A stretch of DNA of 64,000 bases from Deltaproteobacteria bacterium (GCA_033763315.1 JANRKS010000005.1:321646-385645), one strand, 5' to 3'; shown: positions 23,493-38,710, counted from the first letter of the stretch. Numbers and translations: made by a program. Notes: a model not told the origin generated them from the letters alone.

Positions 23493-24434
23493 CTACGCTT
23501 GCGTTGGCAGCAGGGCTTCTAGCTTATCGAATGAGCCCGTCCAGCCTTGTGTCATGCCGGGCTTGCCTTGATGGAACGTCTCGCGTTCAACGGCTGTGGC
23601 TTCGCCGTGCACTTGCCATTGCACCGTGACCCGCGTGCGATTTGGTTCTTCTTCCGTTAACGTCACGGTGGTCAGCATCTCTGCGGGCCACGTCGGCGCC
23701 AAGGGATGGCGTGCCGGTTGTTCGTCTTTGTCGCAGAAGGACTGCGTGTAGACGATAAGGTTCGGCTTCTGAATTTTCTGGTAGTTGCCTCTGCCGTACA
23801 TGGTAAGACCATTGCCGCTCATGCAAAAGAAGGAGCTGCCGCCTGGCCTGATGTCAGCGCGCAGATACTCCATCGTCATGCCTACGGGCGGCAGCCACTG
23901 CGCGAAATGCGCAGGATTCGTCCACAGATCGAACATCGTGTTGATGTCTGCATCGAAGGTGCGATTGATCACGAACTTATCCGTGGGGGATAGATACTCG
24001 GCCAACCGATCCCAGGTGCTATCGCCACCAACCTGCTTGATAAACTTCTTTGTTTCCTTGGCGGCCTGCTCAGTTGCCAAAGCCATGGTCATCTCCATCA
24101 GCGTTTTGTTGCCAACCTCCTTGAAGTTGACCGTGACACGAAAGAGCGGCGGCCGATCTTCGTAACCGCCATGGTCGTACACAAGCCGCGCATACTCTTG
24201 CACTTCTAGAAACTTGGTGTGGTTCGGATAATCGGTGCCATCAGGGCCGTGCATGACGTATTTCCACGAGCCGCCCGTTCGAACGTCCTTGTACTCGTTG
24301 GTGATTGTGAACCCACGCGGGCCCCACCACTGCGCCACCTGCGCGGGATCTGTCCACGCTTCCCACACCATCTTCACGGGCGCGTCGAAAAGGCGCTCGA
24401 TGTAAAGTTCGTTCGGCTTACTTTTGGTTGCCAT
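23493..24434 (-). CDS. Tandem SRPBCC/AHSA1 domain protein
   Basis: Two START-like repeats (R.FDAP..VWEAWTDP..WWGP; RTFDA....F..WT.P..WLPP; GW..SFDKL). Confidence 0.9.
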   Translation of the reverse strand: MATKSKPNELYIERLFDAPVKMVWEAWTDPAQVAQWWGPRGFTITNEYKDVRTGGSWKYVMHGPDGTDYPNHTKFLEVQEYARLVYDHGGYEDRPPLFRVTVNFKEVGNKTLMEMTMALATEQAAKETKKFIKQVGGDSTWDRLAEYLSPTDKFVINRTFDADINTMFDLWTNPAHFAQWLPPVGMTMEYLRADIRPGGSSFFCMSGNGLTMYGRGNYQKIQKPNLIVYTQSFCDKDEQPARHPLAPTWPAEMLTTVTLTEEEPNRTRVTVQWQVHGEATAVERETFHQGKPGMTQGWTGSFDKLEALLPTQA

Positions 24435-24828
24435 CTTGGCTTCCCTTCTTCTTGTTCGTTTTGTTGGTGCGCTTTGGGGCTGCGCTCGTTTTGGCTTCAG
24501 CGTTTTTGAGCCGCATCTGCTGCTTTAAATACGCGTCGAGTTGATCGAAGCGTTGCTCCCAGATCGTTTTGTATTCGTCCACCCAGTCTGCGATCTCACG
24601 CAACGCCGCCGGTTCGATGCGGCAAGGGCGAAACTGGGCGTCGCGGCTGCGCGAAATCAGCCGGGCGTTCTCGAGCACCTTTAGGTGTTTGGTGATGGCC
24701 GGGGCTGAGATCGCAAACGGCTTCGCCAGATCCTTCACGGTGGCTTCTCCTTGCGCCAATTGCGCCAGGATGGCTCGACGTGTGGGATCAGCCAGCGCGA
24801 AGAACGTCAGCGTCAGCGTGTCTTCCAT
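24418..24828 (-). CDS. ArsR/SmtB-family regulator
   Basis: FFALADPTRRAIL, PAITKHLKVLE, W..RFDQLD; usual partner of SRPBCC genes. Confidence 0.93.
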   Translation of the reverse strand: MEDTLTLTFFALADPTRRAILAQLAQGEATVKDLAKPFAISAPAITKHLKVLENARLISRSRDAQFRPCRIEPAALREIADWVDEYKTIWEQRFDQLDAYLKQQMRLKNAEAKTSAAPKRTNKTNKKKGSQDGNQK

Positions 24829-24848
24829 GGCGACGAACTATGCCAGTT

Positions 24849-24873
24849 GGTTAATTAACCCGCAAGTTAATTA
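24849..24873. promoter_or_regulatory. Putative ArsR operator
   Basis: Palindrome GGTTAATTAACC and inverted repeat TAATTAAC-N6-GTTAATTA just upstream of arsR. Confidence 0.65.
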
Positions 24874-25007
24874 TAAGTTTAACGCCGGGATCGCTGCAGC
24901 GGTGCACCCTTGCGCCTTATCAGGGGTGCCCATATCATAACAATCTATAACAAGAAGCCGGGCCACCTTTGACGGGTGAGCCGCTGGCCAGCGGGAAGAA
25001 GGACTCC

Positions 25008-25817
25008 ATGCAGTTTCGGAGCGTTCGCAGCCATATTTTTCGTGCAGGCGTATGGGCCACCAGCACGGGCCTGTTGCTCGGTTTGACGTTGGCTTGTTCC
25101 AACGAAGCCGCAGAAAGCCAAGCGCAGTCGAATACCGCTGGCGAAGGTGGAGAGGGCGCAGAAGGCGGCAGTGGGGGCGGTGACGATCGCGTCCCGATGG
25201 GAGGCTCTACCGAGCCCTCACCGGTCATGGTTGACGCCTCCATTGCGGACTCGGCGGCCGACGCGGGTGGAGAGGATGCGAAAGAGGCAGGAAACCTTGT
25301 CCCTGCAATCATGGGCGCCGGTTACGGAGGCATCCGCACAATTTCTTTCGACGACGGTCTCACGTGGAAAACCCTGGCGATCGCCAACCGGCGCAACGCA
25401 GATGACGAGAACTTGATCCGTGGGGTCGGCTATGTGGGCGGCGTTTGGATCGCTGTGGGCTGGAAGGTGTTTCGTTCAGTTGATGGTCGCCAATGGACCG
25501 AAGCGGATCTGCCCGGCGGTTGGTACGACTGCGTAAGTGAAAGCAACGGAAAGATCATCGTGAAGACAATCCGATCCGATTATGGCGGTCAAAACGGCGA
25601 CACGTTGTCGTCAAGCGATCAGGGAAGAACGTGGCAAGAGGTTAGAGCTAACAAACCCGTTTGCAACTACACTCCCAAACCCTTTCCCGCGGGCAACGCG
25701 CTCGTGCGTGGCCGCGGCGGCATCGAGCGCTCCACTGATCAAGGCAAAACGTGGAAGAAAGTGTTTGAAGACTGCTGCTGGGTGGAAACGTTCGCTGCGG
25801 GCCGCGCCGCCCGTTAG
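25008..25817 (+). CDS. Lipoprotein with BNR/Asp-box repeats
   Basis: Lipobox TLAC; SFDDGLTW, SVDGRQW, SSDQGRTW, STDQGKTW. Confidence 0.7.
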   Translation: MQFRSVRSHIFRAGVWATSTGLLLGLTLACSNEAAESQAQSNTAGEGGEGAEGGSGGGDDRVPMGGSTEPSPVMVDASIADSAADAGGEDAKEAGNLVPAIMGAGYGGIRTISFDDGLTWKTLAIANRRNADDENLIRGVGYVGGVWIAVGWKVFRSVDGRQWTEADLPGGWYDCVSESNGKIIVKTIRSDYGGQNGDTLSSSDQGRTWQEVRANKPVCNYTPKPFPAGNALVRGRGGIERSTDQGKTWKKVFEDCCWVETFAAGRAAR

Positions 25818-25836
25818 GTGCAACCTTACGGGCGTC

Positions 25837-25926
25837 GTTAGTCGACGTAGAATGTGAAGCTGTCGATCACTTGGCCGCTTACGTTCTTGAAGTAGCCGGT
25901 GCCTTTTTTGGGATTGCCATCCACAT
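25837..25926. repeat. Direct repeat copy 1 (90 bp): orphan duplicate of the 3' end of the metallophosphoesterase gene
   Basis: Identical to 34465-34554 except A25919 vs G34547. Confidence 0.95.
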
Positions 25927-26076
25927 CCCGAATCTTTGTGTAGCCCCAACCCAAGTTTTCGTTGGCGAACCGAAGAACAAGGTCAGGCCGCCGAAGTCTG
26001 AATCCTTTTTTTGCGACGAGGTGGGTGAGACAGCGTCAACGGTCGCAACAACATCGATTCACCGAAGGATGATGTC

Positions 26077-27681
26077 ATGAAAACGAAGTCAGTTATGTTG
26101 AGCTCTTTTGCCGCTCTCCTTGGCGCTTGCTCTGGCGTGCCAACATTCGACGAGGAACCACTAGGAGCGGACGTGCAGCTGCGACAAGAGCCGCTCGATG
26201 GCTTACCCGCCAAGGCAGGCGGCCCGCCCGGCGATGACGTTGCTATGACCAGGCAATTTATCCTGGATAGCCTCTCGAAATACGTCCCGGCTGACATCAA
26301 GGCTTTGGGAAAGGCCGCCAACGATTTGGGCACCGTGTACAGCAAAGCAAAGACCACCGTCGAGGTGGCCAGAGCACTGGGGGAAGCTGTAGGACTATTG
26401 CAGAAGCGGCAATCAGCCGAGGAGGGCATTGCCGAGATCCAAAAGCGCCTTGAGTTCGTGATTCAACAGGTCGAGTTGCTGGGCGTTCGGCTGGACGGGC
26501 GGGAATCGGCACGAGATCGTGCCAACCGTCTAGGAATGGCGCTGCGGGCGGTGGTGACTGCCCAGCAGGCCATCGCCTCGGGTCAGAACTTCAACCCCGC
26601 CTGGCCGGCCGCCGAGAACTCTGGCCTAGCGGCGACGCAAGTCATGATGCCAGTGCAGTTTGAGTCGATCTATTCTCACCAGTCGGTTGCCGGCGAATGG
26701 GACAAAATGGTTAGCAGAAGGGCTGCGTCGCCGGGGGGGATCGCTTACGACTGGCGACTGGGTGTACCAGCCATGCTTCAGATCATCGCGGCCCGCATCA
26801 GCGTCATTGCGGCTCTGGACGCATCGTTCAAGACCAGCGGCATTTATAGGAACGAGCTTCTCGACTACCGAGCGAATATCCTCTCTCACATACAGAGAAT
26901 GAACAGCGGTATCGAGTGTGGATGGGCGCCGGGGCCCGCAAACACAAACACGATCCGCGTAGGATGTGCGGACATTCATTCGGGTCTTGCCTCGTACCAG
27001 ACCTTTGAAAACCCCGCAAACTTCTGGCTGTGCCTCGATTTGCGCACGGGACGGTTCAACGAGGATTGCTATCGGCAGGAGCACGCCAAATGGTTGGCGT
27101 TCCACCAAAATGAAGTTGCCACGTCGAAGATATTGCTCAGAGCCGAAGTCGCGAAATCGATGCCGATCTTCGAGATGCAGTCGCTGGCCGACCAGTTGTA
27201 CTCGTACGCTTTCAACTCGCCAGAGCTCACGACGAGGAACCGGCGGATTCAGTCGAATAGCAACCCCAACCTATGCATCGATGTCCAGTGGGGTAACCCC
27301 GGCCGTGGCACACCGGTATGGCTGTGGCCCTGTGACGGCAACAACGCGCAGCAGTGGGTTTATGATCGGCGATCGGGCCTCATCCGCAACCCAGCCTACG
27401 ACAAATGTCTTGATGTCCAATGGGGTAGGATCACCCCGGGGGCCCCGATTTGGACATGGGACTGCACGGGCGATCCAGCCCAGACGTGGACTTGGGATCC
27501 CGAAACGGGGCAGCTGCAAAATGCCTTGGGCACCGTAGCGGCGTTCAATCAGCCAACACAAGCCGATTTGCTCTTCACAGAAAACAGATACACCCCAGTC
27601 GGCCCGAAGCAACAGTGGATCGAGATGTTCACAGACTCCGACTCTTCGGCACCTCCCAAGATAAGCGGACTGAAATTCTAA
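26077..27681 (+). CDS. Lipoprotein with helical N-terminal region and C-terminal ricin-B (QxW) lectin domain
   Basis: Lipobox LGAC; LCIDV..LWPC....AQQW, KCLDV..TWDC....AQTW, QQW. Confidence 0.8.
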   Translation: MKTKSVMLSSFAALLGACSGVPTFDEEPLGADVQLRQEPLDGLPAKAGGPPGDDVAMTRQFILDSLSKYVPADIKALGKAANDLGTVYSKAKTTVEVARALGEAVGLLQKRQSAEEGIAEIQKRLEFVIQQVELLGVRLDGRESARDRANRLGMALRAVVTAQQAIASGQNFNPAWPAAENSGLAATQVMMPVQFESIYSHQSVAGEWDKMVSRRAASPGGIAYDWRLGVPAMLQIIAARISVIAALDASFKTSGIYRNELLDYRANILSHIQRMNSGIECGWAPGPANTNTIRVGCADIHSGLASYQTFENPANFWLCLDLRTGRFNEDCYRQEHAKWLAFHQNEVATSKILLRAEVAKSMPIFEMQSLADQLYSYAFNSPELTTRNRRIQSNSNPNLCIDVQWGNPGRGTPVWLWPCDGNNAQQWVYDRRSGLIRNPAYDKCLDVQWGRITPGAPIWTWDCTGDPAQTWTWDPETGQLQNALGTVAAFNQPTQADLLFTENRYTPVGPKQQWIEMFTDSDSSAPPKISGLKF

Positions 27682-27804
27682 GGTGAATCTCGGAGTGTCG
27701 CCTCGATTCGAATTCCCGTTTCAGAATGACTGAGGGCATTGTGCATGTCTGGCGGGCACGGAAAGGCGGGGCGGCCTGATGCAGCTTTTCGCGAACGCTG
27801 CGAA

Positions 27805-27860
27805 TGCCGCTTGAGAGCGGCAGCAACGAAGGGGGGCGATGTCTGCACAACCCTTCGTTG
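27805..27860. terminator. Two adjacent hairpins between convergent genes
   Basis: TGCCGC-N6-GCGGCA and CAACGAAGGG-N17-CCCTTCGTTG. Confidence 0.4.
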
Positions 27861-27870
27861 TGCCTTCGCG

Positions 27871-28509
27871 CTATTCGGTCTTGAAGCCCACCTTGTTGTG
27901 AGTGCCGTCGCAATAGGGTTTGTTCGCTGACTGGCCACAGCGGCAGAGGGCGGTTTTCTCAACCCGGTTCAGGGTTCGGCCGGTGCCCGAACAGATTTCA
28001 AGATTGCCGCTCACAAGCAGTGGCCCATTCTTGAGCGGCGTGATGGTGAGCGGTCCGCCCCGCGTTGCCAAGGGTTGCGAGGGTGCGGTGGCAGGCTCCC
28101 CCGTTGCGGTGAAATTCGCAGCGCTGTGGCTGCCATCGCAAAATGGCTTGTTGTTCGAGGCACCGCATCGGCACAACGTGGCACGCAGCGCAGAACCGTG
28201 TCCGTCGATCGAGATCTCGGCGTGAATGGCGACGGGGCCATTCTCTCGCACGCGCGCAACGTTCACCAAGGGCGCTGATTCGCCCGGGGTTCCATCCAAG
28301 GGTTCAAACGTGATGGCGCCCGACGGGCAGTTGCGCGCGATTTCGGCGAGCTCTGGGACGCTGGCGTTATCGGGATGTATCCACGCGCCTTGCACGTTAG
28401 GCACGAAGACATCCGGTCGATCCAAAACGCAGTGTCTTGAGTGGATGCACTTCTTTCCTTCAAAACGAAGGATCGCTTTTTGCCCCGTCACCTCTTCGAT
28501 TTTGCTCAT
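27871..28509 (-). CDS. CDGSH iron-sulfur protein (Fer4_19-like domain plus two zf-CDGSH)
   Basis: CIHSRHC...CPSGA; LCRCGASNNKPFCDGSH; LCRCGQSANKPYCDGTH. Confidence 0.93.
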   Translation of the reverse strand: MSKIEEVTGQKAILRFEGKKCIHSRHCVLDRPDVFVPNVQGAWIHPDNASVPELAEIARNCPSGAITFEPLDGTPGESAPLVNVARVRENGPVAIHAEISIDGHGSALRATLCRCGASNNKPFCDGSHSAANFTATGEPATAPSQPLATRGGPLTITPLKNGPLLVSGNLEICSGTGRTLNRVEKTALCRCGQSANKPYCDGTHNKVGFKTE

Positions 28510-28607
28510 GGTGGAAGAATTGCTTTTCTGCTCGCGAAGAGCAAGTCCCGTATTCGCCCGCGATTTCGCGCCTTCGGGATGTCCGGCTATTGGCTGGCCT
28601 CGGCCGC

Positions 28608-28751
28608 ATGAACCAAGAGGCTTCCCTCCGGCAGATTCGTGCCAGCGAACTCAAGGCGATGCGTGACCAAGGTTTGCCGCACGAGCTCTTTGATGTGCGT
28701 ACCACCGCAGAGCGTGCGCTATTTGCAGAAGTGCCTGCGGGTGGGAGTTAA
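28608..28751 (+). pseudogene. Truncated rhodanese-domain remnant
   Basis: LRQIRASELKAMRDQGLPHELFDVRTTAERA matches a rhodanese N-terminus, then stops after 47 aa. Confidence 0.5.
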
Positions 28752-28777
28752 GCTTCCAGATTGACATCGCGCCTTGG

Positions 28778-29953
28778 CTACCGAAGAAACAGGATGTCCA
28801 ACGCGTCAGTTCGGCGGTCAATCGGGCCGGCGGAGATCTCGGTGCGATTCGCGAGCAACACGGTCGCGATGCCGCGGGAAGGGTAGATTCGCACGTTGCC
28901 GTGAAAGCCCAACCCGCCGCCCTGCTTTCCGAAGTAGGACTGGCCGGCCAACTTGCCGATCACCCAGCCGAGCGCGCCGGCAGGTTGTCCATTCGTCGTG
29001 TGCTGTCGTGCGAACAACTTCGCTTTTGTCTCCGCACGCAGCAGCACCGAATCGCTGCGGAGCAGGTCTGCAAGCACACGTCCCGGCGCTTGTGCCGTAA
29101 CGAAAAGGCCGCCGTACGCACGGCCGTAAGGCAGGACGCGCGAGCTGCTGCTCCACGGGCCGCGTGCGTCGCCCCAGTAGCGCGCTGGCGTCATGAGCCG
29201 AAGCATCCAAGTGAGGGGGCTGAACCGACGAGCGTATCCCACTGCCAACGCGCCGGGCCCGTCTATCGCGAAACGCGCCGACGCAGCCGTGAGGCCCAAG
29301 GGTCGGAACACGTGGTCGTCGACATAGGCCGCGTAGTCCTGGCCGGAGGTGCTTTCGATCACCTTCTCCAACAGCCAGTAGCCGAGGTTCGAATAGCCGT
29401 ACTTCTGCCCAGGTGCGTGGCGAAGGCGCGGGTGCTTCCCGAGGATCCGCTGGATCTCTCGGTCGCGATCGAACGACTGGCCTTGGACCACGAACCAATC
29501 GAGCGGCATTGGATCGGGCACGCCCGAGGTGTGAGCCAACAGCTGACGAATCGTGACGTCGTCGCCATACGGGTGGCGCTTGAAATACTTCTGAAGGGGC
29601 GCGTCCAGCTTGATTCTTCCCTGTTCCACCAGCTGCATAACGGCGATGGCGGTAATCACCTTGGTGGTCGAATACGCCATTAGGATCGTGGCCTCATTCA
29701 TCGGCGTTGCGGAGCCGACGTCGCTCACGCCGGCCGTTGCGGAAAACAGCACGCCCTTTGGACCGACGACCACGTACTGGATCCCAGGCACCTCTCCTGA
29801 TGAGACGAGCTGTTCCAAAGCCAGCCGCGCCCGCGCGGCCGGGGCTCCCTGGGTTACATCGGTGGCTGTACAACTTGGCATGGTCATCGATACCATCAGG
29901 ACAGCCAAGGCGTGCGCGAGGAACGAGCCGATCTGCTTGGCGCCGGGGTTCAT
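28778..29953 (-). CDS. Serine hydrolase, beta-lactamase class C/AmpC-like family (lipoprotein-like)
   Basis: SxxK (STTK), LLAHTSG, YSN; ATGA overlap with the upstream oxidase gene. Confidence 0.88.
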   Translation of the reverse strand: MNPGAKQIGSFLAHALAVLMVSMTMPSCTATDVTQGAPAARARLALEQLVSSGEVPGIQYVVVGPKGVLFSATAGVSDVGSATPMNEATILMAYSTTKVITAIAVMQLVEQGRIKLDAPLQKYFKRHPYGDDVTIRQLLAHTSGVPDPMPLDWFVVQGQSFDRDREIQRILGKHPRLRHAPGQKYGYSNLGYWLLEKVIESTSGQDYAAYVDDHVFRPLGLTAASARFAIDGPGALAVGYARRFSPLTWMLRLMTPARYWGDARGPWSSSSRVLPYGRAYGGLFVTAQAPGRVLADLLRSDSVLLRAETKAKLFARQHTTNGQPAGALGWVIGKLAGQSYFGKQGGGLGFHGNVRIYPSRGIATVLLANRTEISAGPIDRRTDALDILFLR

Positions 29954-30648
29954 CGCAACGGCTCCGACGTGACCGCGACGTGGTCATTGGGCTCAGGGGA
30001 GGTATGGAACCGTGCGCACGTCATGCGGCGCAGGCTCTCATCGCGGTGCTCGGCCTCGTCGCGGGCGATCTGGCGAAACAACGCCGCAAGCGTCGCGTGC
30101 GCACCGTAGTCTTCGGCGAAGATGCTGATCCAGGGCTGCGATTCAAGCTCGGGGTGGCCAGCGACAAACGCCAAGTATGAAACTTCGGCGTGATCCTCGA
30201 AGTCGGCGTTCAGTGCGTAACTCCAGCGCGGGTTGAGCACGTATAGAAGCCAGCTGACGTGGTAGTAGACAAGCGCCAGCAGCTGCGGGATCGCGCGGCC
30301 GAGCAACCACGATGTTCGTTCGCCACTTTTCGAAAGCAGCTCGTCCACGATCAGGAGGTGCCACTGCTCGTTGTCTTGGGCAGCGCGTGCCTCGCGCACG
30401 TACTCGAAGATCCGGCGGGCCGAGCGGAAGCGATGGTGGGCGTGAGTGAGCGCGACGTACGCGACGCCTTCCCAGGCCTGGTACGGCACGCGTGCGACCA
30501 ACTCCAAGACCTGAAGCTTCTTTAGAGTCAGCTGGCGCCCGTACAGGGCGTCCATCGTGAAGAACAAGGCACGCGCCAGCCAGCCGTGGCGTCGCGGAGC
30601 TCGTGTGATAGTTTGAGGGGCTTTGTTGCGAGTGGGGTTGGTGGTCAT
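29950..30648 (-). CDS. Alternative oxidase/PTOX-like di-iron carboxylate protein
   Basis: LELVARVPY, DNEQWHL, FEDHAEVSY and IARDEAEH give the four AOX/PTOX iron-ligand motifs; start at 30648 fits the sigma54 promoter. Confidence 0.8.
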   Translation of the reverse strand: MTTNPTRNKAPQTITRAPRRHGWLARALFFTMDALYGRQLTLKKLQVLELVARVPYQAWEGVAYVALTHAHHRFRSARRIFEYVREARAAQDNEQWHLLIVDELLSKSGERTSWLLGRAIPQLLALVYYHVSWLLYVLNPRWSYALNADFEDHAEVSYLAFVAGHPELESQPWISIFAEDYGAHATLAALFRQIARDEAEHRDESLRRMTCARFHTSPEPNDHVAVTSEPLR

Positions 30649-30661
30649 GCCATTCGCTTGC

Positions 30662-30677
30662 AGCAACCGACGTGCCA
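30662..30677 (-). promoter_or_regulatory. Sigma54 (-24/-12) promoter for the oxidase-hydrolase operon
   Basis: Minus strand TGGCACGTCGGTTGCT, a perfect match to TGGCACG-N4-TTGCW. Confidence 0.85.
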
Positions 30678-30693
30678 TCGCGACGGTGGCTGG

Positions 30694-31737
30694 TCAAACG
30701 ACGGTGGCGCGCCGGTTCGCAATCTTCCGCCACAGCGTGCTGCGGCTGATGCCCAGGACGCGCGCGGCGCGCTCTTGGTTGTTGTCGCAGCTGTCGAGAA
30801 CGCGGGCAATGTGCGCACGCTCCACCGCGTCCAGAGATTTGAGTTCGCCATCCGCTGCGGATGGCCGCGGTGGGGACACTGCGATGTCTTCTGGCAGATG
30901 CTCCACTGCGACAGCGCGATCTTGTGCGAAGGCAACGGCATGCTCGATGGCGTTGCCGAGCTCACGTACGTTGCCCGGCCACGTGTACGCTTCGAGCATC
31001 GCTCGCGCCCGCGCGGACAGCTTCAGGTCCGCTACGCCCAGCTTGCTGGCAAACATCCGCGCCAGCGGCACGATGTCGTCGCGTCGTTCGCGCAGCGGCG
31101 GGACATTCAGCGTGAACACCCGCAGCCGGTAGAACAGATCCTCGCGAAACCGACCGGCCGCGACCAGAGCCTTCAGATCACGGTGGGTGGCGCTGAGCAC
31201 TCGTACATCCACGGGACGTGCCCGCGCTTCCCCAACCCGCCGGATCTCGCCTTCTTGCAGGACGCGCAGCAGCTTGGCTTGCAGCAGAAGTGGCATCTCG
31301 CCGATCTCGTCGAGCAGCAACGTCCCGCCGTCGGCCTCACCGAAGAGACCGGGCGTGCTGGCAGCGGCACCCGTAAAAGCGCCCTTGGCGTGGCCAAACA
31401 ATTCCGACTCAAGCAGCTCTGAAGGCAGCGCCGCCACGTTCACGGCGAGGAACGGTCGCGAATGGCGTGGGCTGTTCGAGTGAATCAGGCGCGCGATGAC
31501 CTCCTTACCGGTGCCCGTCTCCCCGTGGATGACAGCGCTGGATTTGGTCTGCGCAACGACGGCGCACTTGGCGAGCACATTCCGAAGGGCTTCGCTGCTG
31601 GCAACGACACGCGAGCAACGGCGTAACCCGTCCACCTGCGGCGCACGCTTACAAACGCCACACAACCGAATCCGTTCCATGGGCTCGCTGCAGGGGCCAA
31701 CCACCGGGAGGTGACGAGTTTCATTTTGAGACGTCAT
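30694..31737 (-). CDS. Sigma54-dependent enhancer-binding protein (AAA+, Fis HTH) with a short Cys-rich N-terminus
   Basis: GETGTGKE, ESELFGH, GAFTGA, LLLDEIGE, FREDLFYRL, WPGNVREL, LGISRSTLWRK; the longer N-terminus in the ORF track overlaps opposite-strand genes. Confidence 0.92.
   Translation of the reverse strand: MTSQNETRHLPVVGPCSEPMERIRLCGVCKRAPQVDGLRRCSRVVASSEALRNVLAKCAVVAQTKSSAVIHGETGTGKEVIARLIHSNSPRHSRPFLAVNVAALPSELLESELFGHAKGAFTGAAASTPGLFGEADGGTLLLDEIGEMPLLLQAKLLRVLQEGEIRRVGEARARPVDVRVLSATHRDLKALVAAGRFREDLFYRLRVFTLNVPPLRERRDDIVPLARMFASKLGVADLKLSARARAMLEAYTWPGNVRELGNAIEHAVAFAQDRAVAVEHLPEDIAVSPPRPSAADGELKSLDAVERAHIARVLDSCDNNQERAARVLGISRSTLWRKIANRRATVV
31718..31732. promoter_or_regulatory. 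Candidate upstream activator sequence GTTTCA-TTT-TGAGAC
   Basis: Near-palindrome about 100 bp upstream of the predicted start site of the + strand sigma54 promoter; overlaps the first codons of the activator gene. Confidence 0.5.
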
Positions 31738-31796
31738 GTGTTCGATTCTGGAGAATACCGGCGTGAATGCGCCCAAGCAACCAAGGCTTTCGCCGC

Positions 31797-31812
31797 TGGC
31801 CCGAGCGTTGCA
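31797..31812 (+). promoter_or_regulatory. Sigma54 (-24/-12) promoter for the membrane pair/globin/hemerythrin operon
   Basis: TGGCCCGAGCGTTGCA, one mismatch to consensus, 28 nt before ATG 31841 (GGAG RBS). Confidence 0.75.
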
Positions 31813-31840
31813 GTCCCGGAGCTCCGAAAGGAGATCGTCT

Positions 31841-32332
31841 ATGAACCAAAAGCGACCTGCACTCTTTCCTCCGCCCGAGGACGCATCGATCCGGCAACGC
31901 CTTGCCAGGTACCTGCTACGCGCACACGGGGCTGGGCTTGTGTTGCTGGCGTCGGGCAATGCCGTCGTGTCGTTCCGAGCGACGCAAATGCCCATCGCGG
32001 GCCCGTTCCGCTTCCTGTTCGAGAATCCGGCCGCCGAGATCGGACTGCTGCAGGCGTACCTACTCATGGCCGCGATTGGCGCGGTCCTGTTCTGCGGGTC
32101 TTTCGCTGTGCGCATCGGCCGCTTCGACGCTCTCGGCATCGCCGCGCATCTGGTGCCGTTGTTGGCGCTCCTGGCCTTCCGCCCCCTTGTGATCTCGTTC
32201 ATGGGACCCGGCACCCTGCTGATGAGCGCCACCATCCATCTCACGTTCATCGCGATCGAGGTCGTGGCCCTGCTGCTGCAAGGCCGCATGGCGTGGTCGG
32301 GCAGAATCCAAGCCGGGGTGGTGGCGTCATGA
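31841..32332 (+). CDS. Hypothetical 4-TM membrane protein (paralog 1)
   Basis: Hydrophobic helices with LRAHG, AAHL and TIHL. Confidence 0.7.
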   Translation: MNQKRPALFPPPEDASIRQRLARYLLRAHGAGLVLLASGNAVVSFRATQMPIAGPFRFLFENPAAEIGLLQAYLLMAAIGAVLFCGSFAVRIGRFDALGIAAHLVPLLALLAFRPLVISFMGPGTLLMSATIHLTFIAIEVVALLLQGRMAWSGRIQAGVVAS

Positions 32333-32769
32333 TCTGGGGACGTTCCATCCTTCGCGCACACGGCAGCATTCTCGCGGTTCTCGGCGCGATGCTGTTCGGT
32401 CGGACACTGGTAGGTCGGTTTCATGGTGCCGGCATGTTCTCCTTCTTGGCGAGCAACCACGTGGCCGCGATCGGATTCGCTGAGGCCTACGGTCTGATTG
32501 CCCTCACCGGCGTGGCCCTCGTTCTGGGAGCAGGGTTACCCCGGCCCCGCGCTCTGCACATCGTGGCCGCCGGGATTCACGCTTTTCTTACAGCGATCAA
32601 CTTATCCAACTGGCGGTTCTACGCCGTGCTGGGCATGCAAGGCGCGGGCTACGGTTCGACCGCGATGCACGTGGTCCTTGCGACCGTCGAGGTTGCATGC
32701 GCAGTGATGTCCAGTGATGCGCGCGGGGCTACCTTACGAGGAAAGGCGGTCTGCGATGCGCGACCTTGA
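32329..32769 (+). CDS. Hypothetical 4-TM membrane protein (paralog 2)
   Basis: ATGA overlap with paralog 1; LRAHG, GIHA and AMHV. Confidence 0.7.
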   Translation: MIWGRSILRAHGSILAVLGAMLFGRTLVGRFHGAGMFSFLASNHVAAIGFAEAYGLIALTGVALVLGAGLPRPRALHIVAAGIHAFLTAINLSNWRFYAVLGMQGAGYGSTAMHVVLATVEVACAVMSSDARGATLRGKAVCDARP

Positions 32770-33151
32770 ATCCATCGCCGACTGCCGCGCGTTGGTCGAA
32801 CGCTTCTACGACGCCGCGCGACGCGATCCGCTGCTCGGTCCCGTCTTTGCCGCGAGGTTGTCGCGCGTGTGGCCCGATCACCTCGAAACCATGACCCGGT
32901 TCTGGGGCGCGGTGTTGTTCGCCCAACCCCTGTACCACGGAAGCCCGATCGAACGTCACCAAGGTCTACCGATCGAAGGCGCGCATTTTCGTCGCTGGCT
33001 CGATCTGTGGACGGAAGCCGTTGACGGTCTGTTCAGCGGTGCACGTGCCGAACACGCCAAGCGCGGCGCCGCGCGTATGGCCGAGCGGATGGCCAAGTCC
33101 GTTTCAGGCTTCGCTTCAAACACCACCACCATCACACCCGCTCGTCAATGA
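32756..33151 (+). CDS. Group III truncated hemoglobin (trHbP)
   Basis: LVERFY..ARRDPLLGPVF, WPDHL..MTRFW, YHGSP..RH, HFRRWL.LW. Confidence 0.9.
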   Translation: MRDLESIADCRALVERFYDAARRDPLLGPVFAARLSRVWPDHLETMTRFWGAVLFAQPLYHGSPIERHQGLPIEGAHFRRWLDLWTEAVDGLFSGARAEHAKRGAARMAERMAKSVSGFASNTTTITPARQ

Positions 33152-33972
33152 AAGGAATGAACATGATCAATACGCAAAAAGAAGGTCGAGTGTGGGCCCT
33201 CCACGCGCCCCTTGAGGTTGTCACGTTCGACATCTACCGTGACATCCATAAAGGGATCCGGGCCGAGCTGTTCGGCGTCACCACCGCCGCTGGCAACGTG
33301 GACCCGCACGACGGCACCGCGATCGCGTCACTGCTCCAGCGCTTGTCAGCACTCGTCGGGCTTCTGGACGGGCACGCCGCTCACGAGGATCGATACCTGG
33401 CGCCGCTCATCCAGCGCCAATCGGGTGCGCTGGCTGACGCCATCACGCAGGACCACCGCACCCTGGAAGGGCAGCTTCATCAGCTGGCGTCGACGCTGCA
33501 GAATGTCCCTTCGTCCAGGTCAGAACAGCGCTTGGCCGTTCATCGCTTCTACCTGTGCATGGCCTCGTTCACTTCGGACTATCTTGAGCACCAGGCGTTG
33601 GAGGAGCTCGAAGTGATGCCGGCCCTTGCTGCTGGGTACACAGTGCAGGATCTCTTGCATGTGAACGCCGAGATCCTCGCGGAGATCCCTCCTGAGACGA
33701 TGGCCGCATCGCTGTCTCTCCTCCTGCCGGCAATGAACGTTGATGATCGCGTCGAGATGTTGTCCGGGATCAGAGCGACCGCGCCACCTCAGGAGTTTGC
33801 GGCCGTACTCGGCCTCGCGGCCACCGTCCTGCCCCCAGCGGACTACGCGGCTCTGGCTGCGCTCGGCGACAACATTGTTGCCGCCACGAGGCGAACCATC
33901 GACAACGACAGCGTCACTCGCGCATTTGTTCCTTGTCTGCCAGCCAGGGAAGAAGGCTCTCGGAGAGGGTGA
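33148..33972 (+). CDS. Hemerythrin-domain (HHE) protein; C-terminus probably altered by a junction
   Basis: DIYRDIHKGIR, HAAHED, DH..LE, YLEHQALEE; the tail after YAALAAL looks unrelated. Confidence 0.82.
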   Translation: MKGMNMINTQKEGRVWALHAPLEVVTFDIYRDIHKGIRAELFGVTTAAGNVDPHDGTAIASLLQRLSALVGLLDGHAAHEDRYLAPLIQRQSGALADAITQDHRTLEGQLHQLASTLQNVPSSRSEQRLAVHRFYLCMASFTSDYLEHQALEELEVMPALAAGYTVQDLLHVNAEILAEIPPETMAASLSLLLPAMNVDDRVEMLSGIRATAPPQEFAAVLGLAATVLPPADYAALAALGDNIVAATRRTIDNDSVTRAFVPCLPAREEGSRRG

Positions 33973-34360
33973 CAACTTTTCCGATGATTGGCGAACCGTT
34001 GGCTCCGCTGACCTGGCTTCACTGCGTTCTTTGCTCCTTAGCATTGAGAACTACCCATTCCTAAAGGCAAGGCTTGCTGGCAAAAAGGAATTCACGCCCG
34101 GCTGCGCATTTCGACCTGGCTTCGCCATCCGCTTTGAGCGCCGCCGTGGATCGAAGGTGCGAAGGCTAGACATACTCCTCTGCTTTAGGTGCGGCCTCCT
34201 ACGACTGGTTCGGGGAGATGGCGCGGTTGAATATGCCGAAAGTATGACCGCGATGACCGATGGTTTGCGGATGATTATGGAGAGGGTCTTCCCTGGCAAG
34301 GACGACGTGTTGGAGGCCGCAAGACGGTATGATCGCCGCCAAGACGCCCTTCGGCAATAG
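33862..34360 (+). pseudogene. 5'-truncated hypothetical gene remnant
   Basis: Frame encodes CAFRPGFAIRF...DILLCFRC but has no credible start of its own; overlaps the hemerythrin tail; left boundary approximate. Confidence 0.4.
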
Positions 34361-34464
34361 AGGGCGTGACGACGGCGACTATCCGCGCCCAACGTATGAA
34401 AACTTGCGCGGGCAGCGCAGGTTCACTTGCACATGTGCTCGAAGACGGAGCGGGCGTCTTCGTG

Positions 34465-34554
34465 GTTAGTCGACGTAGAATGTGAAGCTGTCGATCACTT
34501 GGCCGCTTACGTTCTTGAAGTAGCCGGTGCCTTTTTTGGGATTGCCGTCCACAT
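34465..34554. repeat. Direct repeat copy 2 (90 bp): 3' end of the metallophosphoesterase CDS
   Basis: Matches 25837-25926 with one mismatch; adjacent hairpin CGAAGACG-N7-CGTCTTCG at 34440-34462. Confidence 0.95.
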
Positions 34555-36019
34555 GGAAGGTCAGGAACAAAGCGCCAAATTGGGCGCCTTGATTGCTTGT
34601 GTAGATTGAGGCCCAGATCGGGCAACTCGCGTCTGTGGTGTTAAGGGAGGCGTAGGGTGCCGACGACGCCGTGGGTGCGCAGCGCACTTGATCGCGCAAG
34701 CCGGTGCCGCCTGTGCCCACAACAGCCAGCCAGCTGCGGCCCGGTCCGACGCACAAACTTGAACCTGTGGCGCATGACGAAGAAATGGTTTGGTTGGTGA
34801 AGCTGCTCAAAGTCTTCGTGCGGTGGTATGTGTGCTCGTGCCCGTTGATGATGATGGCGCCTTGGTTCTTGCAAGCTTCATAGACGTCGTAGCCCATCTC
34901 GTCGCCTTTGCCGCCCACTTGAAGCTTGTTCTGGTTTTGGTGCCAGTAACAGATTTTCGAGATTTCCGCCCGGCCTGAAAATCGATCGTTGACCCGCGCA
35001 GCTGTGTCGCCCTTCTTTATGGCAACCAATGACACGCCTTTGAACACTGTAAGGTAGTTGGCGTCGTGCGCACCTGCGATGCGCGTAGCGCCGCCTAAGT
35101 GGTTGCTTGCTTCGGGCAAGAATCCTGACCATGAACTGTCGTCGTGGTTGCCGCGGGCCAAGAACACCGGATAGGTTTGCCCCACCTTCCCTTCGGTGGC
35201 GCTCCACCAGCCGTTCGGATCGGCATCGTACGTCATGTCTCCGGCCACGACCACGGCTTGTGCACCCTCGGCAAGAACCAGGTTCAGCACGCCAGTCCAG
35301 TTGGCGCCGTCTGCTGTATCCCCAACGAAAGCAATCTTGGTGTTCGCCTGTGCTGGCACGGGTGTCGTCGTCCCGGTACCCGCGCTTGTGATCACGATCT
35401 GTGGTTGATTGCTGGTGGCGTTGCGTGAACTAAAGTCCATTCCATCGGTGGTGCCCGGGATGATGGCCAAGGAGTAGGTGGCGTTCGGCGCTGTTACCAA
35501 ACTGGTGATATCCACCTCTTTCCACGTGTTCGCGCTTGCGCTGGTGATCGTGGCGATGTTGGTGGCATCGGGCGCGGGCTTGTTGTTCCAGGTGATGCCC
35601 GATTCGGTCCATGTATTGTTCGCCACACGGCGAACGTAGTAGGGGCCAGCCGATGCGTTGGTTACGTAGAAGCGCAACTTCACATTCGATATCGCGCCCA
35701 CATTGCCGACGGCGAAGCGGAGGTATCCGTGAAACACGATGCCCGCATCGTCGCCGTCGTTTTGCACGGTTGTGGCTGAACCATAGTTGGTGTTGGCATA
35801 TGTCCCGGAACGTACGTAAGAATCTGCCGCAAGACCACCCGTGGTGGTAAGACCGAAACGTTGCAGCTCGATGGCTGGGCCTTCCCCTCGCGGCACGCCC
35901 AGTTCCGACACCCTTTGTTCGTCGTCATCAGCCGCACAGCCCACAGCCAAAACGGCCATCAGCGGAGCTGTCAATGCAAAACCGCGAGCGAACGCATTCG
36001 ATCCCTTTATCAAGCCCAT
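34466..36019 (-). CDS. Lipoprotein with DNRLRE/CBM96-like domain and calcineurin-like metallophosphoesterase
   Basis: Lipobox AVGC; ADSYV...NTNYG, YLRF, WTESGITWNNKP, P.IVIT; GD, GDMTY, GNHD, GHEH; start approximate. Confidence 0.85.
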   Translation of the reverse strand: MGLIKGSNAFARGFALTAPLMAVLAVGCAADDDEQRVSELGVPRGEGPAIELQRFGLTTTGGLAADSYVRSGTYANTNYGSATTVQNDGDDAGIVFHGYLRFAVGNVGAISNVKLRFYVTNASAGPYYVRRVANNTWTESGITWNNKPAPDATNIATITSASANTWKEVDITSLVTAPNATYSLAIIPGTTDGMDFSSRNATSNQPQIVITSAGTGTTTPVPAQANTKIAFVGDTADGANWTGVLNLVLAEGAQAVVVAGDMTYDADPNGWWSATEGKVGQTYPVFLARGNHDDSSWSGFLPEASNHLGGATRIAGAHDANYLTVFKGVSLVAIKKGDTAARVNDRFSGRAEISKICYWHQNQNKLQVGGKGDEMGYDVYEACKNQGAIIINGHEHTYHRTKTLSSFTNQTISSSCATGSSLCVGPGRSWLAVVGTGGTGLRDQVRCAPTASSAPYASLNTTDASCPIWASIYTSNQGAQFGALFLTFHVDGNPKKGTGYFKNVSGQVIDSFTFYVD

Positions 36020-36172
36020 GACCATCCCTTTCCTACGCGACGTAAAGAGGCCCGTGCCTCGTCCCCGCTGTTGTAAGGCCAAAGCCACCCGGCTTGTGTG
36101 ACCCTTTGGGCAACTTCAAGTTGCGAAAGTGTGTCTGGTTTTCAACGGTCACCTCACGTAAGAAGGTCCGCG

Positions 36173-37735
36173 ATGCTTGCCTGGCCTGCGCGCCCCCGAA
36201 CGCTCGTCGCGCTTGCGGCCGTGGTATCGCACGCCTCGGCACTTTGGGGAGGCTTCGTGTGGCTCGACCACGCGCACATCACAGATGGACTCGCGATCGT
36301 GCCGCTGCGACACATCAGCATGGCATTTACACAGGGCTTCGCCGGCACAGGGTTTTATCGGCCCTTGATGGCGGCTTCGCTATCGCTCGACGCCGCTTTG
36401 GGGGCGCCTGCCTGGTGGTTCCACGCCATGTCATTGGCTTGGCATGCCGCCGCCTCTGTCATGGTGCTCATCACGGCCCAGGCTTTAGGAACGAAAACGC
36501 GTTCGGCTGTGGTAGCCGGTTTGATCTTTGCTGTTCACCCCATGGGTGCCCTGGTCACTGGTGCGATTGCGTTCCGTTCGGAGGCGATGATCACTTGTGC
36601 CCTTTTGGCTTTGCTCGTGTTTCATCTGCAAAGACGGCCCTGGGCGTCGGCCTGTGCGTTGCTCCTCGGGGGCCTTACGAAGGAGACGGCGTTGGTGCTG
36701 GGGCCGCTGTTCATCGTTGCCTTGGAAGTCGAGCGACCCAGCAAGCGGTGGAAGTTGTGGCTTTGCGAAGCGGCGGCATTCGCGATGGCCGTGATGCCGC
36801 GCTTATTGTTCTCGCCCGCTTGGCACGCGCACTTTGCACCGCTGACGACCAATTACGCGGTGGGCACACGCTTGGCGGCGCTACTAAAGACGGCCGCGCT
36901 TGCTGTTTTCCCATTTCGCCACACGGTGTGCGACGCTTTCCCCGTCACAGCGGCGTGGTCGTTGGTTTCGATGCTGGGAGCCGTGGTGTTGGTTGGGATT
37001 GGGTGGTTGGCGTGGAAGCAGCGTGGCCCTGCCGTGCTGTTGCTTATAGCGCTTCTGCCATCGCTTCACCTCGTGCCTATCATGCGCTGGTGGTCGCCCC
37101 ACTATGTCTACGTGCCGATGGCGTTCGCTTGCATAGTGGTGGCCGAGCCTGTGGTGCGCCTTTGGCGCGAGCGCAGCCGTTGGGGCTCGGCTGTGGCCGT
37201 GGCCGCGCTGGTGATGCTGTGTCTGCAGAGCCTAAGTTCCGGTCTGCGCTATCGCAGCGACGTGACATTGTGGCAGCCAGAAGTGGCGCACGATCCAACG
37301 TGCCGGGAAGGCCACTTCTATATGGGCGAGGCCGCGCGCGCCGCGGGCCACCTTGACGAGGCTGTGGCTCATTACGAGGCTGCCGTCACCAGCCACGCGC
37401 GCGTGATCGCATATGTTGATCAAGGCGCCGCCTTGCAGAACCTGGGCGTGGTTCGCCTCTCGCAATCACGCTTTGACGATGCTGTCGCTATTTTCCGCAG
37501 CGCCTTGGCAGTGGTGAACGAGCCATCGGAGCGGCGCCAGATCACGCATAACTTGGCCACAGCAGAACTTCGTTTGGGTCACGCCGAACAAGCTGAAGAT
37601 TTGCTTCGGCAGGAAACTGAACGCAACGACGCGCTAAAGGCTTCCTTGTTTGTGCGGGCACATGCGTTGGCTCGCCTTGGACGCCGCCACGAGGCTGATG
37701 TGCTGATGGCCCGCTATAAGACCGCCCTACCTTAA
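36173..37735 (+). CDS. Multi-TM protein with C-terminal TPRs (TMTC/GT-C glycosyltransferase-like)
   Basis: GFVWLD, FYRPL, FAVHP, R.E, TKE, YRSDVTLW, then TPR repeats; start approximate. Confidence 0.72.
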   Translation: MLAWPARPRTLVALAAVVSHASALWGGFVWLDHAHITDGLAIVPLRHISMAFTQGFAGTGFYRPLMAASLSLDAALGAPAWWFHAMSLAWHAAASVMVLITAQALGTKTRSAVVAGLIFAVHPMGALVTGAIAFRSEAMITCALLALLVFHLQRRPWASACALLLGGLTKETALVLGPLFIVALEVERPSKRWKLWLCEAAAFAMAVMPRLLFSPAWHAHFAPLTTNYAVGTRLAALLKTAALAVFPFRHTVCDAFPVTAAWSLVSMLGAVVLVGIGWLAWKQRGPAVLLLIALLPSLHLVPIMRWWSPHYVYVPMAFACIVVAEPVVRLWRERSRWGSAVAVAALVMLCLQSLSSGLRYRSDVTLWQPEVAHDPTCREGHFYMGEAARAAGHLDEAVAHYEAAVTSHARVIAYVDQGAALQNLGVVRLSQSRFDDAVAIFRSALAVVNEPSERRQITHNLATAELRLGHAEQAEDLLRQETERNDALKASLFVRAHALARLGRRHEADVLMARYKTALP

Positions 37736-37744
37736 ATGCGCGTT

Positions 37745-38710
37745 CTACTTAGGTAAGTCGGCCGCCACTTGGGCAGCAAGAATCCGCACCCCCTTATCGG
37801 CGTCAGAGGCAGCGATTTGCCCTGCCAAAGTGGCCAACGATGGATCGTTTGCGCCCTTAAGCGCATGTAGCGCGGAGAGCCGCACATACGCTGCAGGGTC
37901 CGAGGCCGCCGCAAGCTTGAGGGCCTCTAGAGCCGCCGGGTTGTCACGCAGAAGCCCCAGGTTGCGTGCGGCTTCGAGGCGAATCGATTCATGTGGTCCC
38001 GTGCGCGCGAGCTCCGCCAAAACCTGAACGGCTTTGGGATCGCCGGTGTTGGCCAACGCCGCCATCGCTTTCATACGCGGCGTGAACACCTTCTCGTCAG
38101 GAAGTTCAGTTGAAGGATCATTGGGGTTGCGTGGTTCGGCGATAAGGGGCGCTGCAGGCAGATCCGGATCAGTCAACGCCACATCTGACAACGCCGCCAC
38201 CGCCGTGGGTGTTTTCTGTTGCCCCAAGCTTTCGAATGCCATGGCGCGGGTGGAACTCTGCTTCCCCTGCCGCGCTTCTTCAATCACGCGCGCCTCAACG
38301 GCGGGCCAAGGCAAGCGTCTTAAGAGGTTAAACAAGCGATCGCGTGCGGCGGGCAATGTGCTGCCATTAAGGCGGGCGATCACGGGCGTAACTGCGCCCT
38401 CGCCCATGCTCAGCAGCTGTTCCTCCCACGCCTGCGCTTGGCGCTCTTCTTCTTCGCTTAGCGCACGGGCCGATCCCACGAGCGCGAACCACTGTTCGGT
38501 CAACAGCTCGGCGGCCGTGGCTGGTGCTTTGGGCGGAGGCGCTGGCGATGTTGGCGGCGCTTGGATGGGTTGGTCCTGCACTGGTGTGGGAGCCGGCAGA
38601 GCAGCCTGAGTATCAACAGGGGGGGCCGGTGTCGAGGCTGACCGCACAGCAAAGCAAACCGCCGCAATCGCCCCCACCAATAACACCCCGAGGATGGTTC
38701 TGGCTTTCAT
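37745..38710 (-). CDS. Membrane-anchored HEAT-repeat protein
   Basis: N-terminal TM, Pro-rich linker, repeats such as IRLEAARNLG and VRLSALHAL. Confidence 0.75.
   Translation of the reverse strand: MKARTILGVLLVGAIAAVCFAVRSASTPAPPVDTQAALPAPTPVQDQPIQAPPTSPAPPPKAPATAAELLTEQWFALVGSARALSEEEERQAQAWEEQLLSMGEGAVTPVIARLNGSTLPAARDRLFNLLRRLPWPAVEARVIEEARQGKQSSTRAMAFESLGQQKTPTAVAALSDVALTDPDLPAAPLIAEPRNPNDPSTELPDEKVFTPRMKAMAALANTGDPKAVQVLAELARTGPHESIRLEAARNLGLLRDNPAALEALKLAAASDPAAYVRLSALHALKGANDPSLATLAGQIAASDADKGVRILAAQVAADLPK

Follow-up and report, generated by a model that had tools for sequence, protein, structure and literature searches.

A duplicated phosphoesterase 3′ end and a transposase relic probably mark an old cut-and-paste accident of recombination, not a self-moving island

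Two nearly identical copies of the 3′ end of a protein-coding gene, lying about 8.6 kb apart, raise the question of how the DNA between them came to its present place. The window, that is, the whole 64,000-nt stretch of DNA from a Deltaproteobacteria bacterium that we analysed, had been described in an earlier note as holding an island at this point, inserted into a metallophosphoesterase gene either through a recombinase acting in trans or by homologous recombination of a circle. By repeat search and alignment, we located the direct repeat at 25833-25926 and 34461-34554 (94 nt, 92 of the 94 bases the same or 98%, spacing 8628). When a 6-nt gap is allowed, the left copy at 25829-25926 equals the right copy at 34451-34554 except for one synonymous mismatch (A at 25919, G at 34547). 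The gap corresponds to TTCGTG at 34459-34464, present in the right copy only, and the short stretch GGGCGTC that the earlier note had seen outside the repeat is indeed common to both copies (25830-25836 on the left, 34452-34458 on the right). BLAST with the left boundary against the whole 7.63-Mb assembly returned these two copies only (E 7e-40) and no third one. The match is far beyond chance expectation, and search, alignment and BLAST together bear out the reported 90-bp near-identical duplication. Genome-wide, same-strand repeat pairs of at least 80 nt and at least 90% identity, 2-30 kb apart, number only eight, four of them at one GroEL locus. The features at the two borders are the following.

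24969..25817, plus strand: gene for a BNR/Asp-box (sortilin-like) protein, in convergent orientation to the dead stub, with 11 nt between its stop and the repeat start
25829..25926, minus strand: left repeat copy, a phosphoesterase fragment with codons 512-540, the stop codon (25838-25840) and 9 nt of 3′ flank
25924..25999, minus strand: rve_3 (DDE) transposase-gene relic, covering roughly residues 104-131 of the 364-aa product (BLAST, BLASTP, tblastn, PF13683)
34451..34554, minus strand: right repeat copy, the genuine 3′ end of the intact gene with 15 nt of flank behind it, including TTCGTG
34466..36088, minus strand: intact phosphoesterase gene, 540 aa, with CBM96/DNRLRE and calcineurin-like metallophosphoesterase domains (Pfam, NCBIfam)

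As had been proposed, the repeat is the terminal part of the gene at 34466-36088 (minus strand), comprising its final 29 codons and stop. Homologues of the 540-aa protein align with it through to the final residue; translation may in fact begin at an internal Met near residue 22. The left copy shares 97% identity with phosphoesterase residues 512-540, its open frame is merely 65 aa long, and there is no usable reading frame upstream of it; by its sequence, it is a dead 29-codon stub. It sits downstream of the intact phosphoesterase gene on the same strand, so that a duplicated part of the homologous anchor lies beside the insert, in keeping with the earlier suggestion that it is the displaced old 3′ end.

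The sequence just inside this stub proved to be a piece of a transposase gene. Its first 58 nt (25924-25981) are 88% identical to C37:2140-2197 by BLAST, with a copy on contig C2 also similar; BLASTP against P0004 gave 21 of 28 identities (E 9e-12), and tblastn, family names and PF13683 matches back the same assignment. The relic is an internal piece of the transposase gene, neither of its ends being an IS terminus, and in this assembly tblastn found the family only as broken copies and small relics. Phosphoesterase homology reaches 25926 and transposase homology begins at 25924, so that the two unrelated sequences meet with a three-base overlap, CAT (25924-25926). The left inner edge of the 94-nt repeat is therefore a joint within a transposase reading frame, with no recognisable element end, and the stub/relic junction is a putative illegitimate joint and probably not an attachment site. 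Such an edge resembles neither an element end nor an att core, which makes a site-specific recombinase acting in trans unlikely. The other half of the earlier proposal, recombination of a circle, for which there is experimental precedent (PMC3240628), is still a leading model. A second, inverted transposase piece at the right border was sought as a possible sign of inversion or of a composite element and was rejected, the best local alignment being equalled in 80 of 500 shuffles and in 144 of 500 random genomic windows. A composite transposon or IS-mediated transposition, which would leave IS copies with intact ends at each border and a target-site duplication, does not fit a single relic of 58-76 nt that is internal to a transposase gene.

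Pfam and PHROGs scans of all long ORFs from 24969 to 36088 found no integrase, and in the island they found no excisionase or transfer gene either. The region has no tRNA, no Rfam RNA and no terminal repeats. The 385-kb contig (C5) carries no tyrosine recombinase, the five PF00589 matches of the genome lying on C2, C9, C16 and C27; by the region scans and the genome-wide PF00589 search, there is thus no site-specific recombinase in or beside the segment. The statement that there is no integrase accordingly holds for intact genes, but the transposase-gene relic at 25924-25999 had been overlooked. Between the borders lie the following reading frames.

26077..27681, plus strand: ricin-B-type lectin protein (C-terminal domain), 534 aa, cargo, not found in four relatives
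27871..28509, minus strand: CDGSH iron-sulfur protein with an Fer4_19 domain, cargo
28778..29953, minus strand: beta-lactamase-family serine hydrolase, cargo
29950..30678, minus strand: alternative-oxidase-like di-iron protein, cargo
30694..32460, minus strand: sigma-54-dependent transcriptional activator, cargo
32714..33151, plus strand: bacterial-like (truncated) globin, cargo
33148..33972, plus strand: hemerythrin-domain protein, cargo; homology to two dead copies on contig C6 ends at 33884
33980..34360, plus strand: open frame without a family match, possibly a small gene

From their family assignments, the cargo is predicted to consist of ordinary oxygen-, iron- and redox-related genes without a mobility function. 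The CDGSH gene is the only one of them with clear same-genus homologues (73-78% amino acid identity), which stand in other contexts. The 8.6 kb have a GC content of 61.6% (genome 60.6%, sd 1.7) and a tetranucleotide distance at the 89th percentile among 876 windows, and the GC steps fall near 28.5 and 33.9 kb, away from the repeats. Neither measure gives a distinct composition that changes at the ends. The comparison of GC inside and outside thus does not support the view of a foreign island, there being no compositional block and no GC step at the repeats; with cargo that lacks foreign composition, nothing shows arrival from outside. The flanks are as accessory as the cargo.

An empty site was not found among the relatives, because they are too distant and their synteny is poor. 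The phosphoesterase was not found in two same-genus genomes and elsewhere occurs in different gene orders; no arrangement like that of a donor or a recipient appeared in 40 relatives, three genome-collection loci and seven metagenome loci. None of the loci from these two scans is close; 55% identity is the highest. When 20 kb were searched at the DNA level in four relatives, only an AHSA1 block and the CDGSH gene proved conserved, on separate contigs, and tblastn of window ORFs against neighbourhoods from relatives revealed no shared gene order.

Three hairpins lie near the repeat copies.

25808..25834, strand not assigned: hairpin over the BNR stop and the outer edge of the left copy (z -1.4; 17 of 200 shuffles fold equally well or better)
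34396..34419, minus strand: terminator-like hairpin with a T-run behind the phosphoesterase; the T-run holds the right arm of the inverted pair
34440..34462, minus strand: 8-bp hairpin directly past the intact gene's stop codon; its loop is where homology to the left copy stops

The hairpin at 25808..25834 is no stronger than shuffled sequence and cannot decide the direction of the event, nor can another at 25983-26001 (z 0.2). A weak 9-nt inverted pair had been reported inside both ends. Its position was right, but it is at chance level: of 5000 shuffles, 282 contain a pair of equal or greater length, as do 635 of 5000 real window pairs with the same spacing. Its left arm falls in the part of the transposase relic that codes for the conserved ENLGWG. 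Outside the repeat, the flanks of the two copies are unrelated (local score reached by 157 of 1000 shuffles, anchored score by 125 of 2000), as the joining of two different neighbourhoods of one gene would predict. The inner flanks share a 22-nt match reached by 16 of 1000 shuffles, which after several tests we treated as chance.

We propose, tentatively and with a probability of about 0.4, that the segment was inserted without an integrase through one homologous and one illegitimate joint. Donor DNA, supplied by a close relative or by another copy within the cell, would have borne its own phosphoesterase 3′ end with the cargo adjoining. It would have recombined with the resident gene through the common 3′-end homology, and its other end would have been joined illegitimately at the CAT overlap inside the decayed transposase gene. 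This could have happened by a Campbell-type single crossover of a circularised fragment, or by homology-facilitated illegitimate recombination, in which a linear fragment is joined homologously at one end and illegitimately at the other; we assume that RecA made the homologous joint and end joining the illegitimate one. The product would be an intact gene, then the inserted DNA, then the resident's old 3′ end as a dead stub downstream on the same strand. In favour of this reading, we count the two-copy repeat, the dead same-strand stub, the CAT joint, the lack of an integrase, tRNA or Rfam RNA, the three Ku genes of the genome and the architecture of the GroEL locus. Against it, no relative shows an empty site or a donor arrangement, a prior difference between donor and recipient is needed 15-18 nt past the stop codon, the hairpin proposed as an old terminator shared by the BNR gene and the stub is no better than shuffles, the short GroEL pieces are shuffled, and a duplication followed by a deletion within the genome yields the identical joint. 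Which way the event ran, where the 8.6 kb came from and which enzymes acted are our inferences. As for excision, no more than a rare RecA-dependent deletion between the 94-nt repeats is to be expected.

Nearly equal in probability is an event within the genome that involved no foreign DNA, the cargo being native and always beside the phosphoesterase. A tandem duplication of 25927-34554 (join 34554|25927) could have arisen, with a later illegitimate deletion removing most of the first copy together with the remaining insertion sequence, and the observed joint, with the repeat end beside 25927, matches that join point exactly and has a 3-nt overlap; this route does require two independent illegitimate events, and there is no trace of a second cargo-gene copy beside the stub. 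Alternatively, during break repair in a resident insertion sequence, template switching to the nearby gene end could have copied some 100 nt, with the hairpin loop where homology stops as a plausible switch point; we know of no bacterial precedent for templated fillers of about 100 nt, which counts against it, and random capture would rarely give a stub in cis, downstream and on the same strand. A native origin agrees with the genome-like composition of the cargo and with same-genus CDGSH homologues at an identity level equal to that of the flanking genes. The presence of the transposase family only as broken copies and relics suggests an old relic in place, and other patchworks of the genome's own gene pieces exist, at C6:71455-71688 and among the shuffled GroEL pieces.

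An assembly or binning artefact, in which copies from different strains or molecules were threaded into one contig, is very unlikely. The genome is a draft of 40 contigs (90.85% complete, 4.1% contamination), but contig ends overlap by exactly 141 nt, from which we infer a de Bruijn k of 141 that exceeds the 94-104 nt repeat. Moreover, the stub-relic joint shares only 3 nt, so that no k-mer graph could create it, and the region is interior to the 385-kb contig. Least probable of all is an integrative island that used the phosphoesterase 3′ end as its attachment site and was moved by a recombinase encoded elsewhere in the genome. Direct repeats at the segment borders, an intact target gene, the five tyrosine recombinases on other contigs and the rarity of the alternative-oxidase-like gene (present in 1 of 88 other genomes of the family) would suit such an element. 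Against these stand the left inner edge inside a transposase frame, the chance nature of the inverted pair, the GC steps that miss the repeats, the lack of a further 'att' copy elsewhere in the genome and of integrase, excisionase or transfer genes inside the segment, and the differing end points of the GroEL pieces, which argue against site-specific cutting.

Comparable gene-end pieces occur elsewhere in the genome. At the GroEL locus, on the same contig, three dead 3′ pieces lie downstream on the same strand with ordinary genes in between, in shuffled order and with differing end points; for the order of these short pieces, template switching is a better fit than simple displacement. A terminator T-run marks the end of the GroEL piece, whereas that of the phosphoesterase piece lies in the loop of a 3′ hairpin. 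Two pieces of the hemerythrin gene flank 2.6 kb in contig C6, where 71455-71688 carries copies of window positions 28718-28762 and 33748-33884 merely 54 nt apart. A genome-wide check by eye suggests a 3′-end bias among dead gene pieces, with about 3 of 8 independent cases, which are too few. The phosphoesterase, GroEL and hemerythrin cases could mean that this Ku-rich, myxobacterial-type genome repeatedly takes up or reshuffles multi-kb blocks at gene 3′ ends without an integrase, each time leaving a displaced dead 3′ piece downstream, a generalisation that we consider unlikely. In a bolder variant, the 5′-truncated pieces, which reach or slightly overrun the gene end, may be mRNA copies made by the genome's reverse transcriptase.

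By itself, the locus is a small scar. A direct repeat derived from a gene's 3′ end is insufficient to call an integrative island, because here the sequence just inside the repeat decided the reading. If the three-locus pattern reflects a common integrase-free route with a homologous anchor and end joining, it would help to account for the assembly of large accessory regions in the big, poorly syntenic genomes of soil bacteria; if true, repeated uptake of 3′-end blocks would be a general, recombination-driven mode of building such regions.

Among known systems, integrative islands that rebuild the 3′ end of a tRNA or protein-coding target likewise have a direct repeat of that end and an intact gene at one end. 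Our segment, in contrast, lacks an integrase and resembles the genome in composition; no element end marks the repeat's inner edge, and the gene serving as target is accessory and patchily distributed. In Sinorhizobium meliloti (PMC6379672), NHEJ inserts heterologous DNA into a chromosomal break. That process shares with our locus joints with minimal or no homology and several Ku genes (three here); it differs in that, in those experiments, a supplied cassette was captured at an induced break and own short gene pieces were not. Homology-facilitated illegitimate recombination and the 'displacement' model for T6SS/Rhs orphan modules, as outlined in PMC5361080, also pair a homologous anchor with a single illegitimate joint; the new DNA comes to lie upstream of the older piece, which is retained, and repeated rounds can build arrays, which may be compared with the GroEL locus. 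Unlike the loci treated there, ours is no polymorphic toxin locus, the displaced piece is of 29 codons and the donor is hypothetical. Finally, among clones obtained after conjugation in E. coli (PMC3240628), 56 of 60 had a duplicated part of the homologous locus; the 14 that were sequenced had duplications of 109-950 bp, attributed to a single crossover of a circle whose homology was truncated. In our case, circle and donor alike are hypothetical, the joint that would have closed the circle falls within a transposase relic, and the homology is at the short end of the range. As in those Campbell-type crossovers, a directly duplicated gene segment (94-104 nt here) flanks the insert without the involvement of a site-specific recombinase, and one copy restores the gene while the other is a stub.

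Repeat search and alignment bore out that the 8.6-kb segment carries a near-identical duplication of a gene 3′ end at its two borders: 25833-25926 and 34461-34554 agree at 92 of 94 positions. When a 6-nt gap is allowed (TTCGTG, found in the right copy alone at 34459-34464), left 25829-25926 equals right 34451-34554 except for a single mismatch, which is synonymous (A at 25919, G at 34547). The right copy ends an intact gene, homologues of which reach the last residue in another genus (62% identity) and on a metagenome contig (55%). Searched across all 40 contigs (7.63 Mb), the assembly yielded these two copies and no third. The two copies are as follows:

25829-25926: left copy, the stub, codons 512-540 and the stop of the phosphoesterase, with an open frame of just 65 codons and the gene body absent
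34466-36088, minus strand: intact phosphoesterase gene, 540 aa, with CBM96/DNRLRE and calcineurin-like phosphoesterase domains, the end of which is the right copy

The earlier note had described the left border correctly as regards the repeat and had overlooked a transposase-gene relic lying directly inside it. Window 25924-25981 matches a portion of a contig C37 gene at 88% identity and also resembles a gene at the start of contig C2. The gene in question covers the N-terminal part of a transposase of 364 aa that contains an rve_3 integrase-core domain. Searches retrieved 266 longer relatives at E ≤ 1e-10; of the top 120 listed, most carry PF13683 and the named entries read transposase, integrase core domain-containing protein, or hypothetical protein, while NCBIfam gave weak IS3/IS481 matches under the curated cut-offs. 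The relic corresponds to transposase residues 104-131 (21/28 identities, E 9e-12, BLASTP), and by tblastn it spans 25928-25999. Within the assembly, tblastn recovered broken copies only: the C37 copy (C37:1827-2536) is missing residues 156-280, the C2 copy (C2:3-410) runs past the contig end, and four more scraps lie on C5, C7, C26, and C31; no copy of the intact 364-aa protein was found. Overlapping the relic end, 25973-25993 is a 21-nt exact match to C26:143917-143937, within a 580-aa gene (E 0.006), which may be coincidental or may add a third short piece to the patch.

Phosphoesterase homology stops at 25926 and transposase homology starts at 25924, with a 3-base overlap, CAT. Because both break points are inside reading frames, the joint is illegitimate and is recognizable neither as an element terminus nor as an att core, and the proposal that the repeats mark an att-like target finds no support at this edge. 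The 9-nt inverted pair between the inner edges of the repeats, which the earlier note had called weak, is present. An inverted match as long arises within the inner 150-nt windows in 282 of 5000 shuffles, and 635 of 5000 real window pairs at equal spacing have one too. The left arm lies in the conserved ENLGWG-coding part of the relic; the right one corresponds to the T-run of a terminator-like hairpin 3′ of the phosphoesterase gene. A hairpin considered as an old terminator shared by the BNR gene and the stub folds no better than shuffled sequence. At the right border, insertion-sequence similarity is at chance level: 80 of 500 shuffles attain it, as do 144 of 500 genomic windows.

At many contig ends in the assembly, an overlap of precisely 141 nt with another contig recurs; the end of C5, which is also the right end of the window, overlaps the start of C29 in this way. 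From this we infer de Bruijn assembly at k = 141. Such a k exceeds the repeat length, so the repeat would be unable to cause a false join, and the stub-relic joint has only three common nucleotides and is thus not a product of graph threading. An assembly artefact is therefore very unlikely, although these arguments weigh against it without standing in for read evidence.

The repeats enclose ordinary genes. By domain search these encode a ricin-B-type lectin-domain protein, a CDGSH iron-sulfur protein, a beta-lactamase-family hydrolase, an alternative-oxidase-like di-iron protein, a sigma-54 activator, a globin, and a hemerythrin-domain protein, and one open frame has no family match. The absence of an integrase held: PHROGs, with domain-level matches only, revealed no mobility protein between the repeats, and the five PF00589 matches in the genome all lie on contigs other than C5 (385 kb). 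No tRNA was found in 15000-45000 and no Rfam family in 24000-37000. The cargo at 27871-33972 shares an oxygen/iron/redox theme (CDGSH iron-sulfur protein, alternative-oxidase-like protein, globin, and hemerythrin), the sigma-54 activator sits between two divergent gene groups, and this stretch may be one regulated unit.

The claim of a coherent island was not sustained by composition. The segment has a GC content of 61.6% and the genome a mean of 60.6% (SD 1.7%, 5-kb windows), GC steps near 28.5 kb and 33.9 kb both fall within it, and the left flank, at 57.5%, is farther from the usual value than the cargo. In tetranucleotide distance to the genome mean, the island, left flank, and right flank stand at the 89th, 81st, and 48th percentiles among 876 equal-sized windows. 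Cargo composition does not show a sign of foreign origin.

The two same-genus genomes match the window at about 70-74% DNA identity, and just in the matching parts; nothing beyond the AHSA1 block and the CDGSH gene is recognizable in them, and these lie on separate contigs with other neighbors. Of 40 relatives searched, six have the phosphoesterase, the two same-genus genomes not being among them; the alternative-oxidase-like gene turned up in one of 88 other genomes of the family. Among four relatives tested, none has the lectin protein and one has the hemerythrin protein (32% identity); the closest match to the BNR protein is 45% identical. Given this patchy distribution, flanks and cargo are equally accessory, and an empty site is not definable. 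In other genera, the phosphoesterase keeps company with TPR, HEAT-repeat, and 933-aa genes, differently ordered (arrowheads give direction):

Window: < phosphoesterase, TPR >, < HEAT, < 933 aa
Relative G020 (contig C174, locus L027): phosphoesterase > 933 aa > HEAT > < TPR
Further loci L032 and L036: phosphoesterase > TPR >

The four genes adjoin both in the window (34466-41508) and in L027, in circularly permuted order.

Self-comparison of the assembly showed that this genome contains further dead fragments of its own genes. Downstream of an intact GroEL gene on the same contig, outside the window (loci L045 and L046), lie dead pieces of its 3′ part on the same strand (contig coordinates):

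C5:38907-40568, plus strand: intact GroEL gene
C5:42741-42855, plus strand: GroEL piece
C5:64852-65525, plus strand: GroEL piece, 399 nt at 96.7% identity, terminator included
C5:67113-67271, plus strand: GroEL piece
C7:193408-193473: further GroEL piece, 66 nt

The genes between these pieces are ordinary (NMT1-like, DUF3160, DUF1552, cytochrome c, and HEAT), with no integrase. The end points of the pieces differ, which argues against site-specific cutting, and short pieces neighboring one another at this locus are shuffled in order. The hemerythrin gene of the window is represented by two dead copies of its 3′ half (33468-33884), at C6:68709-69069 and 71455-71688 (locus L047), which are 81-96% identical and contain stop codons and a 56-nt deletion, with an AbiEii/DUF6036-like gene and a CorA gene between them. 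A gap of 54 nt separates one of them from a 45-nt copy of window 28718-28762; the pair keeps the window's order and orientation, with the intervening 5 kb absent. Homology of the window gene to the C6 copies ends at 33884, a few bases ahead of their stop codon; its present C-terminal tail (33885-33972) seems to be a longer replacement, a sign of a further break point within the segment. The phosphoesterase stub accordingly belongs to a small class of scars, whose cases are too few and insufficiently independent for a statistical claim. Elsewhere, C9:33762-33827 and 39658-39724 form a 67-nt direct repeat pair, 5.9 kb apart, which by eye resembles a tRNA 3′ end and makes this a candidate classical tRNA-linked island.

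Every model must provide a joint placing 34554 beside 25927, and three kinds do so. We tentatively favor, at a probability of roughly 0.4, homologous and illegitimate insertion of a cargo segment. A DNA segment comprising the cargo and a copy of the gene's 3′ end would have recombined with the resident phosphoesterase gene through the shared 3′-end homology, its other end being joined illegitimately; it might have entered as a circularized fragment through a single crossover, or as a linear fragment joined homologously at one end and illegitimately at the other. Alternatively, 25927-34554 may have been tandemly duplicated and most of the first copy then deleted, or a break in a resident insertion sequence may have been mended by an approximately 100-nt copy of the nearby gene end; jointly, these two are nearly as probable in our estimation. 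The outer flanks of the two repeat copies are unrelated, which is consistent with insertion of a cargo segment and neutral for the other two. A true integrative element served in trans is the least probable of all. What stands of the earlier interpretation is an integrase-free event, possibly homologous recombination of a circle, shorn of the att-like target, the inverted pair, and the coherence of the island; the prospect of excision reduces to the possibility of a generic, predicted RecA-mediated deletion between the 94-nt repeats.

Insertion of a cargo segment by one homologous and one illegitimate joint has a direct precedent in Escherichia coli: PMC3240628 reports that part of the homologous locus was duplicated in 56 of 60 clones, and attributes the duplications of 109-950 bp in the 14 sequenced clones to a circle with truncated homology that entered by a single crossover. 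In PMC6379672, end joining puts DNA into chromosomal breaks in a bacterium with several Ku genes, like this genome, which has three. The displacement model for orphan modules, as set out in PMC5361080, follows the same logic. The phosphoesterase duplication is a fresh example of an already known kind of recombination scar.
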